Below are positions 479-17,818 of a DNA stretch of 17,818 nt, one piece after another. The notes under the pieces are model-generated. The model was not told where the DNA came from. It saw nothing but the letters and a program-made list of their open reading frames with translations, and ran no database searches. This DNA is from a virus (taxonomy: Duplodnaviria; Heunggongvirae; Uroviricota; Caudoviricetes). A program made the position numbers and the translations under genes. The DNA lies in the IMG/VR virus record IMGVR_UViG_2713896903_000004; one strand, given 5' to 3'. The stretch's first letter is position 1. Each line of letters begins with the position of its first letter.

Positions 479-805
479 TTACTCCTTCGAGCTACCAAAT
501 TTGTTGCCGATTACTCTCATTGCAGCACCACGAATAGCATCGACGCCGATCAGCCCAACGCCGCCACCAATGGCAACAGAAAGTGATTTAGGCCATCCGA
601 CATACTCAAGCGCGGATGCAAAGGTCAGCGTCAGAGCGCCACAGAGCAAAATCTCGAGCGTTTTTCTCTTCCAGCCACCACCACCGCCAAAATAGGCAAT
701 GCGCAAGCCAGCCATAACGATCGACATAATCACTGCGCCCAGCGGTGTGTCTCCACGCCACCAGCTCTGGACCAACTCCAGCCAAGTATTTGGGTTATGA
801 GGCAT
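479..805 (-). CDS. Holin (class I-like; three hydrophobic segments, charged C-terminus)
   Basis: 108-aa ORF immediately upstream of the endolysin. Hydrophobic stretches LGAVIMSIVMAGLRIAYF, TLEILLCGALTLTFASALEYV and LSVAIGGGVGLIGVDAI, with a basic tail. Not lambda-S-like in sequence; the call rests on position and topology. Confidence 0.7.
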   Translation of the reverse strand: MPHNPNTWLELVQSWWRGDTPLGAVIMSIVMAGLRIAYFGGGGGWKRKTLEILLCGALTLTFASALEYVGWPKSLSVAIGGGVGLIGVDAIRGAAMRVIGNKFGSSKE

Positions 806-1096: not shown

Positions 1097-2272
1097 ATGG
1101 ATATAACTTGTTTAGAATGTGGCAATGTTCTTGACGACCCAACTGTAGCTTGCGATAAATGCGGTGCCACGCCTCATGTTGTAGTGCTGGGCAAACAATC
1201 GTACTTTCCTATTGGTGCTGTAACAGCAAATCTTGAAAAAAATGATTCAAGAGCATTTGATTATCGATTAGGTGAAGTTTGGGATCTAAAAAATGAAGTC
1301 ACATCTGAATTCATAACCAGAATTGAGAAAAAATTTAGCCGAAAAAACAAATTTCATAACTTCCTAGACTCAGATCACAACCCTTCATCCATTCCTACGA
1401 TCCTAAAAAAATACATTAATAAAAATAATGAATTCATTGATTTATCTAGAGCTATAATAGAGAGGCTTAAACATAATGCTAATAACGAATCGAGAGTTGC
1501 CCAACTTCAGGGGGGGAGCGTTGTTTTCATCCACTATAAGTCTACCGAACCAGAGGATTTGGGGAAACTTCTAATCGTAATGGTTGATAAACAAAGCGCC
1601 TATGACTTTGATTCGGATAAGTTGACCCCAACAAGATTAAATCCAATTAATACCGATGCCTTACGGCAGGCTGCGATGTTCGATTTAACTTTATTCGAAG
1701 CCAGTTATCCAGAAAACAAGGGTGACTCATATGTACATTTCTTGCAAGGTAAATCTAAAAGCGATTTTTTCAAAGACTCATTAGGTTGCCGACATGATTC
1801 GGACAATAAAAGAAGCATTCAGCAATTATTCAGTGCTATAGATATTTTTGCTAGTAAAAACTCACTCGGTCGTGTACTGCGTGATACTATTGACAATGAA
1901 GTTAAATCCTTACTGGAAAAAAAATCAAAAGATAAACACGGAAATAAGTCCGTTAAGATAGAGGATATTTCAAAAATAATTGACTCATGCCTGACTGATT
2001 CACACAAATGTAAGGGAACGTTTGTCGATTTTGTTAATCTTAATGGTTTCCAGATTGACCCTCAATTTGAACCAACTCCTAAAGCAGCTGAAAGCGCGCT
2101 TACAATTGAAGTGGCAGATAACGACAATAATTTTAAGTTGAAAATAATGCGTGGAGCTATTGGAGACGAAAAGTCAAATAAGCCTGTAATTCTCACTGAC
2201 AACAAATGCGAAATTGTGATAAAATTGAGTCAGGCAAATTATGATGAACTCAAAAGATATAGAGACAGCTAA
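1097..2272 (+). CDS. Hypothetical protein with N-terminal C4 zinc ribbon; possible NdpA/YejK-like (nucleoid-associated) central region
   Basis: 391-aa ORF in an AT-rich block. CxxC...CxxC at residues 5, 8, 19, 22 (CLECGNVLDDPTVACDKCG). The central segment (GGSVVFIHYKS..., YVHFLQGKSKSDFF) resembles my recollection of the YejK/NdpA family but is unverified. Stop TAA is 2 nt before the next ATG. Confidence 0.8.
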   Translation: MDITCLECGNVLDDPTVACDKCGATPHVVVLGKQSYFPIGAVTANLEKNDSRAFDYRLGEVWDLKNEVTSEFITRIEKKFSRKNKFHNFLDSDHNPSSIPTILKKYINKNNEFIDLSRAIIERLKHNANNESRVAQLQGGSVVFIHYKSTEPEDLGKLLIVMVDKQSAYDFDSDKLTPTRLNPINTDALRQAAMFDLTLFEASYPENKGDSYVHFLQGKSKSDFFKDSLGCRHDSDNKRSIQQLFSAIDIFASKNSLGRVLRDTIDNEVKSLLEKKSKDKHGNKSVKIEDISKIIDSCLTDSHKCKGTFVDFVNLNGFQIDPQFEPTPKAAESALTIEVADNDNNFKLKIMRGAIGDEKSNKPVILTDNKCEIVIKLSQANYDELKRYRDS

Positions 2273-2274
2273 TA

Positions 2275-3489
2275 ATGACAATTGCTGATGACTTATCAAG
2301 ATTAGCGCAGATTATTAACGGAGCCTCAAGCAGAGTTGAGGGCTACTACACTGTCATAAGTCTTGAAGAAAGCATTGTTATTGTAAATAGTTCTGAAATA
2401 ATTAGACTGTTACAATCTATAGGTTATAAAAAGGCAACAACCTGCATCGAAAATAATGAAATTTGGCTAGATCGCCAAGCTTCATCTTGGGATGACGCTA
2501 TAATTTATGAGAATGTTGAGTCTTTTTGGTCTAGAGTAAACACCCAAAACGCTCTTCCGAAAAATTATATCATCGGAACGCCGTTAATACTCCCTACTTC
2601 TAAGAATGAAAGCATCGAAAAAATCCATATTTTCTTTATGTGGAAAGATATCCTTTCATTAATTGCTGATCATCATAACAGTGACTGCTCTGTCTTATTT
2701 TTCACCAATGAAGACAAAAGTTATACAGTCGAACTCACGCATTTTTTACAATATAGCGAGATTAATCGCTTATCGAACTCGTCTCTTAAATATGAAATTA
2801 TAAAGGAGCTTCTCGACACAATAAAAATCAATGATTTACACAAAAGCGAGCGCAAGCTCGTTATACGCTCAGCCATAAACGAAGTATTTAAAGCAAATGG
2901 TACGTTCAATTTCTTTGACTTGCTTAACTCTACTGAACTCGTCAGGAAAAAATATGATGAACTATATGAGATTTACACAAAGAGGTTTTCTGTAAATAAA
3001 ATTCTTAACGAACTCGATGAGAAAAATCTTGAGTTCACGAGTAAAATTAACGAATTCATATCATCTAATCAGACAAAAGCATTGACTATTCCCGGTGCAT
3101 TAATAGCAGCTGGTGGCTTAGTGAAGGCTAATGAAACAACCGAAGCAATATTGATTATCGCAGGACTTTGGATGATAAAAAAAGTCAATTACATTTCTAT
3201 TGAGATATTCAATGAAACATTCGACAACTTACGTTCTCGAGTGGAGTCCGCTTTCGATAAGTATTTAAAGTTTGAAGAAAATAAAGAAATCAAAGATAAT
3301 GCAGATAGTATTAAGAGTAGCATTACAGGTTTGATTGATAAAGCTAAAAAAAGGATGAGAACTGTTAAATATCTCGCATCAGCCATGTTTTATGGAGGCC
3401 TTATTTACGTTGGATATAAGCAGTTCCCAGTCTTTTTTGAAAAATCGGCAGTAAATCTATTTTATTTTTTATGCCATACTATAAGCTAA
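2275..3489 (+). CDS. Hypothetical protein with C-terminal hydrophobic (possibly membrane-inserting) segments
   Basis: 404-aa ORF translationally coupled to the upstream gene. Hydrophobic stretches LTIPGALIAAGGLV, AILIIAGLWMI and LASAMFYGGLIYVGY in the last third. No recognisable catalytic motif. Its last 21 nt overlap the 3' end of Q on the other strand. Confidence 0.8.
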   Translation: MTIADDLSRLAQIINGASSRVEGYYTVISLEESIVIVNSSEIIRLLQSIGYKKATTCIENNEIWLDRQASSWDDAIIYENVESFWSRVNTQNALPKNYIIGTPLILPTSKNESIEKIHIFFMWKDILSLIADHHNSDCSVLFFTNEDKSYTVELTHFLQYSEINRLSNSSLKYEIIKELLDTIKINDLHKSERKLVIRSAINEVFKANGTFNFFDLLNSTELVRKKYDELYEIYTKRFSVNKILNELDEKNLEFTSKINEFISSNQTKALTIPGALIAAGGLVKANETTEAILIIAGLWMIKKVNYISIEIFNETFDNLRSRVESAFDKYLKFEENKEIKDNADSIKSSITGLIDKAKKRMRTVKYLASAMFYGGLIYVGYKQFPVFFEKSAVNLFYFLCHTIS

Positions 3490-3825
3490 CATTGCTAAAC
3501 AGCCGTCAACAAACCCCATTGCAGTTTGCAGTTCCTTCCTAATTGTGCCATCAGAGCATTTTCTCTTCTTCGCAATAGTGCGTAATGAGATACCGATAAC
3601 AAAGTGGGCGATGATGAGCTCATATTCCTCTGGTTTATACCTTCTCAACCGAGCCACACAACTGTCTATCATGATGCCTTCATCATCATCGCACTGGAGA
3701 CGTGACTTTTTACCGTGTGGTAGAAGCCCCTTGAAACCAGCCGCTATCGGCTGCCAGTCGACACCACTATTTTCTGCTGCAGCCCAAGCCCCCCAACGAT
3801 CTAAAACTTCGTACATATCACGCAT
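3469..3825 (-). CDS. Late-gene antiterminator Q (small QuuD-type Q family)
   Basis: 118-aa ORF MRDMYEVLDRWGAWAA...IAAGFKGL...CSDGTIRKELQ matches my memory of the DLP12 QuuD-type Q family. GGAGG about 10 nt upstream of the ATG. Positioned between replication genes and the lysis cassette. Confidence 0.75.
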   Translation of the reverse strand: MRDMYEVLDRWGAWAAAENSGVDWQPIAAGFKGLLPHGKKSRLQCDDDEGIMIDSCVARLRRYKPEEYELIIAHFVIGISLRTIAKKRKCSDGTIRKELQTAMGFVDGCLAMLAYSMA

Positions 3826-14353: not shown

Positions 14354-15667
14354 ATGGATAAAGTCAAATATCCAACAGGCGTCGAAAACCACGGCGGCAC
14401 ATTACGCATCTGGTTTAATTTTAAAGGTAAACGTGTCAGGGAAAATCTTGGTGTCCCTGACACTGCCAAGAACAGGAAGATCGCCGGGGAACTACGGACA
14501 TCGGTATGTTTTGCCATCCGCACAGGAAGCTTTGATTATGCTGCACAGTTCCCTGACTCCCCTAACCTTCAGGCTTTTGGGGTAAGTAAAAAAGAAATTA
14601 CGGTGAAAGAACTTGAAGAAAAATGGCTGGATCTGAAACGAATGGAAATCTCTGCAAATGCATTCAATCGCTATGAATCCGTTGCAAGAACGATGGTTCC
14701 GAAAATTGGAGGCAGCAGACTGGTGTCATCGGTAACTAAAGAGGAATTGCTGTATATCAGGAAAGATTTGCTGACCGGGTATCAGAATTCAACGAAAAAC
14801 AAAGCAGCAGCAAAAGGACGGAGCGTCGTTACTGTAAATTATTACATGACGACAATCGCTGGAATGTTTCAGTTTGCTGCAGATCACGGTTACTTAGAAG
14901 CAAATCCCTTCCAGGGAATTAAGCCTCTTAAAAGAGCCAGGGCAGAGCCAGATCCGCTAACTCGTGACGAATTTATTCGCCTGATAGATGCTTGCCGACA
15001 TCAGCAGACGAAAAACCTGTGGTCATTGGCTGTGTACACAGGAATGCGTCACGGTGAACTGGTCTCCCTGGCCTGGGAAGATATCGATCTGAAAGCAGGA
15101 ACTATTACTATCAGGCGCAATTATACGAAACTCGGTGAGTTCACTCTACCTAAAACTGAAGCAAGTACAAACAGGGTTGTGCATCTTATCCAGCCCGCTA
15201 TCAGTGTCCTGAAAAATCAGGCTGAAATGACAAGACTGGGTAAGCAGCACCACATCAAGGTTCAACTACGTGAATATGGGCGTTCAGTGAATCATGAATG
15301 TACTTTCGTATTTAACCCCCAGGTGGTTAGAAAAAGCAAACAGGTCGGTTTTATCTACAAGGTAGATTCTATTGGCGACTCATGGGAAACAGCCATTAAG
15401 CGTGCGGGCATCAGGCACCGGAAAGCATACCAGTCACGACACACTTATGCGTGCTGGTCGTTATCTGCCGGAGCAAATCCAAGCTTCATTGCCAGCCAGA
15501 TGGGCCATGCAAGTGCCCAGATGGTGTTCAATGTATACGGAGCATGGATGACTGACAGTAATGCAGAACAGATCGCAATGCTGAATCAGAAGCTGGCAGA
15601 TTATGTCCCAATGATGCCCCATAGTCACCAAAATGGCACAAAAGGCTTATTAAAATCAGTAAGTTAA
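14354..15667 (+). CDS. int: Tyrosine integrase (lambda/Rac-type with N-terminal arm-binding domain)
   Basis: 437-aa ORF with SD GGAGG 5 nt upstream. Catalytic-domain motifs TGMRHGEL, SRHTYACW and the tyrosine region NVYGAWM. Adjacent to the host junction. Confidence 0.9.
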   Translation: MDKVKYPTGVENHGGTLRIWFNFKGKRVRENLGVPDTAKNRKIAGELRTSVCFAIRTGSFDYAAQFPDSPNLQAFGVSKKEITVKELEEKWLDLKRMEISANAFNRYESVARTMVPKIGGSRLVSSVTKEELLYIRKDLLTGYQNSTKNKAAAKGRSVVTVNYYMTTIAGMFQFAADHGYLEANPFQGIKPLKRARAEPDPLTRDEFIRLIDACRHQQTKNLWSLAVYTGMRHGELVSLAWEDIDLKAGTITIRRNYTKLGEFTLPKTEASTNRVVHLIQPAISVLKNQAEMTRLGKQHHIKVQLREYGRSVNHECTFVFNPQVVRKSKQVGFIYKVDSIGDSWETAIKRAGIRHRKAYQSRHTYACWSLSAGANPSFIASQMGHASAQMVFNVYGAWMTDSNAEQIAMLNQKLADYVPMMPHSHQNGTKGLLKSVS

Positions 15668-15675
15668 TCCTTAAT

Positions 15676-16095
15676 ACCCGTCATGTTAACTGCGTAGAGG
15701 GCAACACTACTCTGTATGCACTGCCGAAAGCGGAAGTTGTGCTGCGCTGGCGTGAGCAAACCAGCGACGATTTCCGTTTTTGTTTTAAGTTCCCGGCAAC
15801 TATTTCGCATCAGGCTGCATTACGTCATTGCGACGATTTAGTGACAGAGTTTTTCACCCGTATGTCGCCGCTGGCACCACGCATTGGGCAATTCTGGCTG
15901 CAATTACCCGCTACCTTCGGTCCACGGGATCTGCCTGCGCTTTGGCATTTTCTCGATACTCTACCTGGCGAGTTTACCTACGGTGTGGAAGTTCGCCATC
16001 CGCTATTTTTTGCCAAAGGGGAAGAAGAACAAACGCTTAATCGCGGCTTGCATCAACGTGGCGTTAATAGGGTAATACTAATCAGACACGTTTAA
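15676..16095 (+). pseudogene. yecE: Start-less internal fragment of a host DUF72-family gene (yecE-like), bounded by two integrated elements
   Basis: The reading frame is open from directly after the int stop, with no ATG or RBS. The product (…NCVEGNTTLYALPKAEVVLRWREQTSDDFRFCFKFPATISH…) resembles my recollection of E. coli YecE. A stop follows shortly after the sequence changes character near 16075. Confidence 0.5.
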
Positions 16096-16150
16096 ATACA
16101 CCATCCAAAGCGATACAATCACACTATTAGTTTTTTATGGTGTATAAACT

Positions 16151-17674
16151 ATGAAACGTGCAATCAGTTACATCCGATTCAGTTCTGAGAAGCAATCCCG
16201 AGGTGATTCACTACGCCGACAATCGAAGTTGGTCACTGACTGGCTTAAAGCTCGTCCTGAGTATCATCTAGATGAATCTCTTACCTTCCGTGATTTGGGG
16301 AAAAGTGCTTTTAGCGGTAAGCACTTGAAAGGTGGCTTAGGCGACTTCTTAACCGCTATTGAGAAAGGGCTTGTAAGAGCTGGTGATACGCTCTTGATAG
16401 AGTCTCTTGACCGTCTGTCACGGCAAGATGTAGACCGAGCAAGTGAACTACTCAGAAACATCCTTCGCTCTGGTGTCGATGTGGTCACATTATCCGATAA
16501 TGAACACTACACAAAGGAATCTCTTAAAGACCCGTTAGCCTTGATTAAGTCAATCCTGATTATGCAACGAGCGCATGAGGAAAGTTTGAGGAAGTCTGAG
16601 CGTATACAGGCTGCATGGGATGCAAAGAAAGAAGCCGCTAAAGCTGGTATCAAGATTTCTAAGCGTTGCCCTGCATGGCTTAAGCTTAATAATGACCGTA
16701 AAAGTTTCTCTGTAATCCCTGAGAAGGTAGCGACGGTAAAGCGATGCTTCCAGCTACGGTTAGAGGGTAAGTCTATCTTGGAAATTGTCAGAACTCTTAA
16801 TAGTGAGGGACATCAGACGCTTAACCAGTACAAAGCGGGTAAATTTAGTCAGACTTCTGTGCAAGACCTTTTGAAGAATCGCTCTGTAATTGGTTATTTC
16901 ACCCCCAAAGGCTGTGAAGAAATTTCAAACTATTACCCCTCTATCATCCCTGAGACTGATTTCTACAAAGTCCAGCAACTATCATATCCTCGTTACGGTA
17001 GAAAACCTGCTTCAGATAAACCATTGAGTGTGAATCTTTTCAAGGGTGTTATCCGTTGTTCTGAATGTGGTCATGCTCTGATTATCACAGGCTTTAGCGA
17101 TACAAGGAACGGGATATATCGCTGCCCTCTTCGTAATGAAAACCGTTGCAGTGCTAAGGGTCTGTCACGTAAGCAAACTGATGGAACATTACTTGCTTTG
17201 CTCTCTCGTCTTGACCGATTTGAGAATGGTACAACGAATGCCATTGATACACTGAAGCTACACCGTGAACACATTTCAAACAATATTGAGAAGCTGGTAC
17301 AACTCTCACTTGAAGTCGAAGACCTGACCGCTATTACCAGCAAGTTAAAACAGTTAAAGGGGGAGTTATCACAGGTTGATGCTGATATTGAGAAGGAGGC
17401 ACAACGCCTTAAATCTATTGACGTGGGTTGTTTGTCTGATTGTGACTTGAGTACAAAGGCGGGAAGGATTGAAGCACAACTGATTATTCGTAGTGCTGTT
17501 AAAGAAGTTGTTTTAAACACTGCTAAACGTCGCTGTAGAGTAACTTTTCACAATGGCAAGGTGATTGACCTGTCGATAACAGAAAACCCCGCTCAGGACA
17601 TTACAGAGGCTGAAAAGTCGCTTACTGAAATTGCTGAGAAGGGTCTGTTAGATGTTGACGCCTTCCAACTGTAG
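16151..17674 (+). CDS. Large serine recombinase (resolvase-type catalytic domain, recombinase domain, zinc ribbon, coiled coil)
   Basis: 507-aa ORF. N-terminal ISYIRFSSEKQ...SLRRQ with the catalytic Ser in RFSS. Cys cluster CSECGH...CPLRNENRC. C-terminal coiled-coil region. Confidence 0.85.
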   Translation: MKRAISYIRFSSEKQSRGDSLRRQSKLVTDWLKARPEYHLDESLTFRDLGKSAFSGKHLKGGLGDFLTAIEKGLVRAGDTLLIESLDRLSRQDVDRASELLRNILRSGVDVVTLSDNEHYTKESLKDPLALIKSILIMQRAHEESLRKSERIQAAWDAKKEAAKAGIKISKRCPAWLKLNNDRKSFSVIPEKVATVKRCFQLRLEGKSILEIVRTLNSEGHQTLNQYKAGKFSQTSVQDLLKNRSVIGYFTPKGCEEISNYYPSIIPETDFYKVQQLSYPRYGRKPASDKPLSVNLFKGVIRCSECGHALIITGFSDTRNGIYRCPLRNENRCSAKGLSRKQTDGTLLALLSRLDRFENGTTNAIDTLKLHREHISNNIEKLVQLSLEVEDLTAITSKLKQLKGELSQVDADIEKEAQRLKSIDVGCLSDCDLSTKAGRIEAQLIIRSAVKEVVLNTAKRRCRVTFHNGKVIDLSITENPAQDITEAEKSLTEIAEKGLLDVDAFQL

Positions 17675-17681
17675 ATAAGTC

Positions 17682-17710
17682 AGGGGCTTCATGGCCCCTT
17701 CCTTCTTTAG
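17682..17710 (+). terminator. Putative intrinsic terminator after the serine recombinase gene
   Basis: Stem aggggc / gcccct with loop ttcatg, followed by T-rich tccttcttt. The U tract is interrupted. Confidence 0.35.
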
Positions 17711-17818
17711 TAAGTACCACGCTTATTAGGGTTGACAGAGTATTTCCGCAGAGCATTACCTGCCTTGAGTACCTTTTCAGCACCTGAATTAGCTGAGTCT
17801 GAGAAGGTGCTTTGACCA

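Follow-up and report, generated by a model that had tools for sequence, protein, structure and literature searches.

A large serine recombinase island in yecE of an Escherichia albertii-type chromosome: a candidate satellite of virulent Felix-O1-like phages

Introduction

Satellites of virulent phages have so far been studied mainly in Vibrio cholerae, where PLE is a satellite of the virulent phage ICP1 (PMC9638900, PMC10055350). In Escherichia coli, 224 putative satellites were described bioinformatically by Barth, Nguyen & Seed in 2023 (lqad076). Most of these have tyrosine integrases and lie beside tRNA genes, with a subset that also carries a serine recombinase, some at a lysR-type gene; they encode capsid and decoration proteins and are tied to the Justusliebigvirus phages Muut, Inny, and Mt1B1_P17 through RepA_N/Odn-like nucleases (lqad076). 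Here, we analyze a stretch of DNA recorded as viral in IMG/VR (IMGVR_UViG_2713896903_000004), hereafter the window, which is the entire contig BBVN01000044.1 (17,818 bp) of assembly GCA_001514745.1. Its last part contains a gene for a large serine recombinase (LSR) just beyond a break in the host gene yecE. Positions 16078-17818 very probably represent the attL end of an approximately 11-kb integrative island that was inserted by this LSR into yecE of an E. albertii-type chromosome. The most likely reading of the island, to which we would give about an even chance, is that it is a satellite or parasite of virulent Felix-O1-like phages, because it has its own integrase and replication initiator, lacks a virion gene set, and is tied to one phage genus through both coding and non-coding DNA.

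Results and discussion

The yecE junction and its crossover site

The gene interrupted at this locus, yecE, encodes a DUF72 protein, and its middle part occupies positions 15686-16079 of the window on the plus strand (yecE nucleotides 86-479 by alignment with K-12 yecE; Pfam DUF72 profile positions 16-138 of 217). This 394-bp fragment is bordered by the junction of a lambdoid prophage on its left and by the island junction on its right, and yecE sequence ends at 16079, 72 bp before the ATG of the LSR gene. As the window is a complete contig, position 17818 is an assembly break and not a biological boundary. The cargo and the far junction were read from 2 metagenome contigs, L002 and L003, which encode an identical 507-amino acid LSR and serve as proxies; the yecE fragment of the window matches that of L002 at 389 of 394 nucleotides. 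Both proxies have the same attL as the window, followed by about 9.4 kb of cargo, a second junction, and then the 3′ part of yecE and yecN. Another metagenome contig, L026, contains an uninterrupted E. albertii-type yecE with the sequence ...AGGGTAATA-CT-GGACAGCC..., and this empty site corresponds exactly to the left arm of attL and the right arm of attR joined at CT.

The length of the crossover was settled by a more divergent island. In L002 and several E. coli strains, attL and attR have 7 bp in common, and a 7-bp common core was considered and then dropped since the island of E. coli O55:H7 DEC5B has only 2 bp in common. The DEC5B junctions read ...GGGTGATT-TT-CATCAGAC... and ...CTTGCTAATC-TT-AGACAGCC..., and because TT is all that they share, the crossover is 2 bp, as it is for all serine integrases. 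E. coli has TT as the dinucleotide, with TTA as the yecE leucine codon, whereas the E. albertii type has CT and the codon CTG; the attP dinucleotide tracks this synonymous difference between the hosts. A mismatch at the central dinucleotide blocks recombination by serine integrases, so this tracking would be a functional requirement.

The attP sites reconstructed from 5 islands are imperfect palindromes of about 50 bp centered on the dinucleotide, with 16-19 of 32 dyad matches. The reconstructed 60-bp attP is AGGTCTAATAGTGCATATAGACCTTGATAATA-CT-AATCAGACACGTTTAAATACACCATCCAAAGC. Its P′ arm lies within attL at 16080-16111 (plus strand) and contains the dyad element GTTTAAATACACC (16090-16102), which is the mirror counterpart of GGTGTATTTAGAC in the P arm at the opposite island end. 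Two dissimilar sites, attP and attB, thus appear to have recombined at a 2-bp dinucleotide with no longer stretch of identity required. By comparison of L002 attL and attR, the empty site in L026, and the DEC5B junctions, the break in yecE is the attL of the LSR, with its predicted crossover dinucleotide CT at 16078-16079 on the plus strand. No description of yecE as an LSR target, with either CT or TT, was found in the literature searched. A consensus scan also returned a sigma-70-like promoter candidate (TTTAAA-17-TACAAT, 16091-16119, plus strand) upstream of the LSR, in a scan whose hit count was not above shuffle expectation. This candidate overlaps the P′ arm, an arrangement that would permit autoregulation of the LSR.

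The integrase

The LSR gene (16151-17674, plus strand) was delimited by its open reading frame (ORF), Pfam, alignment, and a structural model, and encodes 507 amino acids from ATG to stop. A catalytic domain (nucleotides 16160-16642, with the Ser11 codon at 16181-16183) is followed on the same strand by a recombinase domain (16718-16978), a zinc ribbon (17036-17200), and a coiled coil (about 17240-17416). Three Pfam models match above their gathering scores: Resolvase at residues 4-164 (E = 1e-17), Recombinase at residues 190-276 (E = 4e-15), and Zn_ribbon_recom at residues 296-350 (E = 4e-7). When the protein is aligned with 46 homologs of 28-89% identity, there is no variation at Y7, R9, S11, Q15, D87, R88, R91, and E144, and conservation is at least 90% at the cysteines C303, C306, C325, and C333. 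In the AlphaFold2 model (mean predicted local distance difference test, pLDDT, of 82.6), the long helices 364-386 and 393-422 form an antiparallel coiled coil that emerges as an insertion from the zinc-ribbon domain. The top Foldseek matches of this model in the PDB are full-length serine integrases (9dxd/9dxh, PhiC31 9rah/9tep, Bxb1 9iu2, and LI 4kis; E = 1e-17 to 1e-10), and some of the matches are serine integrase-att complexes. The protein therefore has the complete layout of an LSR, with catalytic Ser and Arg residues in the first domain, then the recombinase domain, the zinc ribbon, and the inserted coiled coil.

All 507 codons are intact in 6 lineages (the window, 4 E. coli strains, and Citrobacter freundii), among which the pairwise ratio of nonsynonymous to synonymous substitution rates (dN/dS) is 0.11-0.21. 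The gene has thus remained intact under purifying selection, and its domains, conserved residues, modeled fold, and codon history therefore predict a functional LSR. It adds one member to a known enzyme class and is ordinary in itself. The initial annotation of this stretch, made from the letters alone, had described a 507-amino acid recombinase with a resolvase-type domain, a zinc ribbon, and a coiled coil, and Pfam, alignment, AlphaFold2, and Foldseek all bear this out. It had placed the element at 16075-17818, a start that lies within 3-5 bp of the true junction and an end that is merely the end of the contig, and had proposed locating the crossover against an uninterrupted host locus, a comparison that with the empty yecE of L026 yields CT at 16078-16079.

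The closest phage-borne relatives of the LSR (35% amino acid identity) are YbcK-like recombinases encoded by lambdoid phages, and a lambdoid prophage lies directly upstream in the window. Both observations would suit a recombinase that is an accessory YbcK-like enzyme of that prophage, or else a solitary invertase or resolvase. We consider this highly improbable, since 394 bp of yecE separate the 2 elements, the LSR island occurs with no lambdoid prophage in L002, L003, DEC5B, WEM25, and AH04, and LSR-type attL and attR sites with a 2-bp crossover and a palindromic attP surround the island. The tyrosine-integrase prophage ends near 15686, before the yecE fragment, which agrees with the earlier description of a second integrated element at this position.

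The C-terminal tail of the LSR, which contains a predicted helix at residues 480-496 in the AlphaFold2 model, appears to have a history of its own. Its last approximately 58 codons (L002:11349-11524, about 17499-17674 in the window) are 91-96% identical in nucleotide sequence to islands in which the LSR is otherwise 67% identical in amino acid sequence. These codons travel with the cargo and not with the rest of the LSR, suggesting a recombination break inside the tail. A contig scan with the LSR returned 2 partial loci only, from Shigella flexneri and Escherichia sp.

Extent and cargo of the island

Several comparisons connect the window to its proxies. L002 has a 100% identical LSR and is 99.6% identical over the last 518 bp of the window, and an 890-bp contig from the window's own assembly (BBVN01000092.1) is 100% identical to L002:14530-15419. 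As judged from these matches, L002 can reliably stand in for the element of the window itself. The 99%-identity protein cluster of the LSR carries the name E. albertii, while E. coli relatives of the locus reach only about 85% nucleotide identity. From CT to CT, the island measures 10,990 bp in L002 and 10.6-13.0 kb in 4 E. coli strains, and the longer E. coli islands hold insertions of insertion sequence (IS) elements.

The 3′ end of the first cargo gene lies within the window. Between the convergent LSR and cargo genes lies a G+C-rich, terminator-like hairpin, AGGGGCTTCATGGCCCCT (17682-17699), and then, on the minus strand at 17707-17818, the 3′ end of a gene for a Dit-like tube initiator (TI), cut by the contig end after its last 36 codons and stop. 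The translation of this end, GQSTFSDSANSGAEKVLKAGNALRKYSVNPNKRGTY up to the stop, is identical to the L002 protein. In L002, the complete cargo encodes the TI (256 amino acids, Pfam Dit_like) and a tape-measure protein (TMP; 687 amino acids), both of the Felix-O1-like (Ounavirinae) tail type, ORFs of 71, 239, 97, 128, 97, and 58 amino acids with no assignable function, a replication-initiator-like protein of 260 amino acids (phrog_8102, phrog_270, and phrog_428; E down to 5e-9), a Dam methylase, and a small serine recombinase of 180 amino acids. No capsid, terminase, portal, sheath, tube, or lysis gene was found in the cargo by Pfam, PHROGs, or NCBIfam annotation. PADLOC matched no defense-system family on the island except an orphan methyltransferase model, and Rfam gave nothing above chance within it. 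The element is thus integrated, has its own integrase and replication functions, and lacks a complete virion gene set.

The initial annotation had read the recombinase as the integrase of an element whose cargo lies beyond the window. This expectation held up, as L002 and L003 run through cargo to a second junction, the 3′ part of yecE, and yecN, BBVN01000092.1 matches L002 cargo at 100% identity, and the 3′ end of the first cargo gene lies in the window at 17707-17818. A solitary or degenerate recombinase followed by ordinary chromosome, the scenario that had been set against it, is not what the identical-LSR proxies contain, since both cargo and a far att site were found there. Where the annotation spoke of prophages and islands alike, the island half stands and the prophage half does not; the element is an island of about 11 kb, not a prophage.

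Two observations concern individual parts of this region. The 239-amino acid protein p239 (L002:14826-15545) has 2555 database homologs and carries the NCBI label "transposase," a label that no Pfam, NCBIfam, PHROG, or PADLOC model supports; its AlphaFold2 model consists mostly of long helices and, with a pLDDT of 67, is too poor for a fold search. Independent E. albertii assemblies (the ends of L004, L005, and L008, and 17790-17818 of the window) all break 107-144 bp past the LSR stop. Because islands at another E. albertii site, lpxL, have cargo 91-98% identical to that of the yecE island from L002:11349 onward, the break likely results from a second island copy in the same genome.

Relationship to Felixounavirus phages

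Felixounavirus phages are virulent, and it is to these phages that the tail genes of the island are most closely related. The island TI is 76-77% identical in amino acid sequence to a Felixounavirus protein (gp18 of phage Bas63), with 299 matching phage records overall, and its gene is 82% identical to Bas63 DNA over 538 bp. In the structure of Bas63 determined by cryo-electron microscopy, gp17 is the TMP and gp18 the "tube initiator" on the baseplate hub (PMC12609058). The TIs of different islands are 61-99% identical among themselves and 62-76% identical to gp18, so gp18 falls within the diversity of island TIs. The best phage matches of the TMP are also Felixounavirus TMPs, at about 29% identity over the full length. 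Island TMPs fall into at least 3 types, each approximately 30% identical to gp17, and are best conserved at the N-terminus, in the central TMP_3 domain, and in the C-terminal 30 residues. The adjacency and order of TMP and TI are the same as those of gp17 and gp18. The 71-amino acid protein encoded upstream of the TMP has no similarity to the Bas63 chaperone gp16.

The relationship extends to DNA that encodes no protein. Between the Dam gene and the right end of the island, the non-coding stretch contains blocks homologous to Felixounavirus intergenic DNA (E down to 1.5e-10), matching Bas63 at 27464-27531, 71229-71288, 71516-71671, and 79780-79835. A 281-nucleotide query from this non-coding DNA matched 254 of 50,697 phage records, in every case in unannotated DNA, and the names and hosts of these records are distributed as for the TI matches (Felixounavirus-type). 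A terminator hairpin 3′ of the small recombinase gene (AGCCTCCTTAATTGGGGGCTTTTTT, L002:20504-20527) is also identical at 23 of 24 positions to 2 Bas63 hairpins (34945-34968 and 72120-72143). The homology and synteny of TI and TMP, together with the non-coding blocks, constitute a specific sequence relationship to a putative helper phage, which is a relationship and not in itself a helper function.

Sister islands and mobility

The same gene order occurs behind other LSRs: behind an LSR of 34% amino acid identity between tonB and yciI in E. coli, behind one of 67% amino acid identity adjoining lpxL in E. albertii, and behind one of 83% identity in yecE of C. freundii. Modules have been shuffled between these islands, as the TI and TMP types do not track the LSR type, and it is with the lpxL islands that the recombination break falls within the final approximately 58 LSR codons. 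Closely related strains differ as well. O157:H7 Sakai has an intact yecE, whereas yecE of O157:H7 Rafaela_II holds a 13.4-kb island, which in turn differs from that of O55:H7 DEC5B. The name SpLE2, an element of O157:H7 Sakai, was considered for the island and rejected, since SpLE2 lies near sbcB and yecE is intact in that strain. On these comparisons of genomes, occupancy of yecE evidently turns over quickly and the island is evidently mobile across sites and strains. Among 5426 complete E. coli genomes, the yecE fragment together with the LSR is present in 191 and island DNA in 518 (roughly a tenth).

A further LSR island was observed in yecE of Klebsiella (L018/L019, 9968-20662). It is 10.6 kb long and lies in the opposite orientation behind a 51%-identical LSR, with a different cargo of a small invertase, a replication-initiator-like protein of the HTH_36 type, and unknown genes, and with no tail genes. 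Since this island also sits in yecE, targeting of the gene by LSRs appears to be conserved between genera.

These distributions bear on the possibility that the element is a degraded and non-functional prophage remnant, in which the LSR and 2 tail genes were left when a temperate myovirus decayed in place. The tail genes are indeed present with no other part of a virion module, and IS elements interrupt several of the E. coli copies. Decay in place is nevertheless hard to reconcile with a gene order of about 11 kb that recurs at 3 sites behind 3 LSRs (in E. coli, E. albertii-type contigs, and Citrobacter), with TI and TMP types that are shuffled independently of the LSR type, or with the differences in site occupancy and island type between close O157:H7 and O55:H7 strains. 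The ORFs are intact, the LSR has a dN/dS of 0.11-0.21, the nearest relatives of the tail genes and non-coding blocks belong to Felixounavirus phages, and no full-length prophage version was seen. We therefore regard a prophage remnant as improbable.

A model for the island and its main rival

Under the satellite reading, the island would lie dormant in yecE until infection by a virulent Felixounavirus leads to its excision. The insertion itself would follow the established mechanism of LSRs: dimers would bind to the attP of the circularized island and to the yecE attB and then synapse, and Ser11 would cleave all 4 strands at CT with a 2-nucleotide stagger. Half of the complex would then turn by 180 degrees, and religation would yield attL and attR. 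Reversal, which the coiled coil would otherwise block, would need a recombination directionality factor (RDF), and infection would supply the trigger and possibly also the RDF for the LSR. The excised island would replicate from its own initiator, while its phage-like regulatory DNA would drive expression of the island TMP and TI. These proteins may then be fed into phage tail assembly, giving tails that carry island components. Such components could sabotage the phage, equip island-carrying particles, or both. More broadly, the islands at yecE, tonB-yciI, and lpxL may together form an undescribed satellite family that parasitizes the strictly virulent Felix-O1-like phages in Escherichia, Citrobacter, Shigella, and Salmonella as an enterobacterial counterpart of PLE, a proposal that we rate at slightly below an even chance.

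A number of points weigh against this account of an integrative island and satellite. Excision, a circular form, and packaging have not been observed, and the IMG/VR matches appear to be prophage-region calls from isolate genomes, which are uninformative on packaging. The attR was seen in the identical-LSR metagenome contigs and not in the window's own assembly, which breaks 144 bp past the gene; a search there for attR by way of the C-terminal piece of yecE returned cluster representatives that did not include the exact protein. No RDF was identified, the candidates being the small ORFs of the island or a phage-encoded protein, and RDFs have no common sequence signature. Nor was a capsid-size or packaging function recognized in the cargo, and an 11-kb genome has no obvious route into a head of 87-kb capacity. 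Besides TMP and TI, no island protein matches the Bas63 genome. Among the replication-initiator-like proteins of 3 islands, 2 have no phage homologs and 1 has a single weak match in a Parageobacillus phage; as these are not relevant phage homologs, there is no Odn-type arms-race signature of the kind seen in the satellites of Barth et al. The structural model of p239 is also of low confidence.

The main rival is an anti-phage defense island with no transfer of its own, in which TMP and TI would be dominant-negative decoys that poison Felix-O1-like tail assembly and the LSR would serve only for integration and vertical maintenance. A TI that is highly conserved relative to the phage protein, beside a TMP that has diverged into at least 3 types, is as expected in an arms race, and packaging or capsid genes were not found. 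There is also a precedent for such interference, since blocking of tail assembly is a documented defense strategy of mobile elements in the Tai systems (PMC11364771). On the other hand, no PADLOC family other than the orphan methyltransferase was matched, and the presence of a replication-initiator-like gene and of phage-like non-coding blocks points to a state of induction and replication more than to a passive locus. Pure defense also overlaps largely with the satellite reading, since satellites interfere with their helpers too. We consider a defense island unlikely, and a satellite of virulent Felix-O1-like phages remains the reading that we prefer.

The neighboring lambdoid prophage

The first element in the window is a lambdoid prophage with a tyrosine integrase at 14354-15667 (Arm-DNA-bind_2 and Phage_integrase domains), inserted at about yecE nucleotides 76-86 and ending near 15686. 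Lambdoid prophages of this yecE-integrating type and their att site in yecE are known (PMC8112680). As both this prophage and the LSR island are inserted in it, yecE is cut twice. The same tandem of lambdoid prophage and LSR island was observed in E. coli JKHS016 and FAM21845 and in C. freundii. Within the prophage, a low-GC (33-37%) cassette of 2 genes (1097-3489, plus strand) encodes an NA37/YejK-like nucleoid-associated protein of 391 amino acids and a 404-amino acid protein for which neither Pfam nor PADLOC gave a match. The cassette lies on the opposite strand between genes for the lambdoid Q antiterminator (3469-3825, minus strand) and the holin (479-805, minus strand), the position at which Shiga toxin (Stx) phages carry stx, and it may be a moron or a defense cassette.

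Significance

An LSR with a defined natural attB/attP pair and CT and TT variants is usable as a genome-engineering reagent, and it offers a small case of an attP that tracks a synonymous change in its host target. Of greater value is the cargo, with its 2 proteins that start and measure the Felix-O1-like tail tube and its phage non-coding DNA. Felix-O1-like phages are widely used in typing of Salmonella and E. coli, in biocontrol, and in therapy, and predictions of their host range and efficacy would have to reckon with a resident element that hinders or exploits them. The island is a moderately novel candidate satellite of virulent Felix-O1-like phages, and if this reading is true, it would make satellites of virulent phages tractable in E. 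coli. No publication was found on a yecE LSR island or on a Felixounavirus-linked satellite in the incomplete body of literature searched, and an earlier description may exist.

Comparison with known systems

The LSR of the window has the same domain order and the same constellation of catalytic Ser and Arg residues as the PhiC31, Bxb1, A118/LI, TP901-1, and SPbeta SprA integrases. As with these integrases, its predicted site of action is a 2-bp crossover between a palindromic attP of about 50 bp and a shorter attB inside a gene, although its identity to the characterized integrases is only 14-18% in structural alignments. Lambdoid (Stx-type) prophages in yecE share its host gene. They differ in having a tyrosine integrase and a 21-bp att site near the yecE 5′ end (about nucleotides 76-86 here), whereas the island has an LSR and a 2-bp crossover at yecE nucleotides 478-479.

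The satellites of Barth et al. are the closest resemblance to the yecE island, but they are not the same family. In one example, from O104:H4 2009EL-2050 (L042), the layout is the same, with an integrase, a baseplate protein, a TMP, small genes, and a terminal small serine recombinase. This recombinase, at 64% amino acid identity to that of the window-type island, is the sole homologous protein; the TMP and TI of the yecE island are not detectably homologous to their counterparts in L042. The absence of most tail genes and the modular replication initiators are common to both groups. Unlike the Barth satellites, the yecE island has an LSR, no recognized capsid genes, and a phage tie to Felixounavirus; its proteins gave no capsid-type matches and its replication-initiator-like proteins no Odn-like link. 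Six accessions that were checked are absent from the supplementary files of the 2023 study, among which Table S6 was possibly not included in our search.

Conceptually, PLE offers a further parallel. Its induction, helper-supplied RDF, replication, and transduction have been demonstrated, whereas those of the yecE island are hypothetical, and the yecE island, unlike PLE, carries helper-like TMP and TI tail genes. No sequence homology to PLE was seen, and no search aimed at it was made. The likeness is one of concept: both are small, LSR-integrated chromosomal islands that have their own replication initiator, lack a full set of virion genes, and are linked in sequence to a virulent myovirus.

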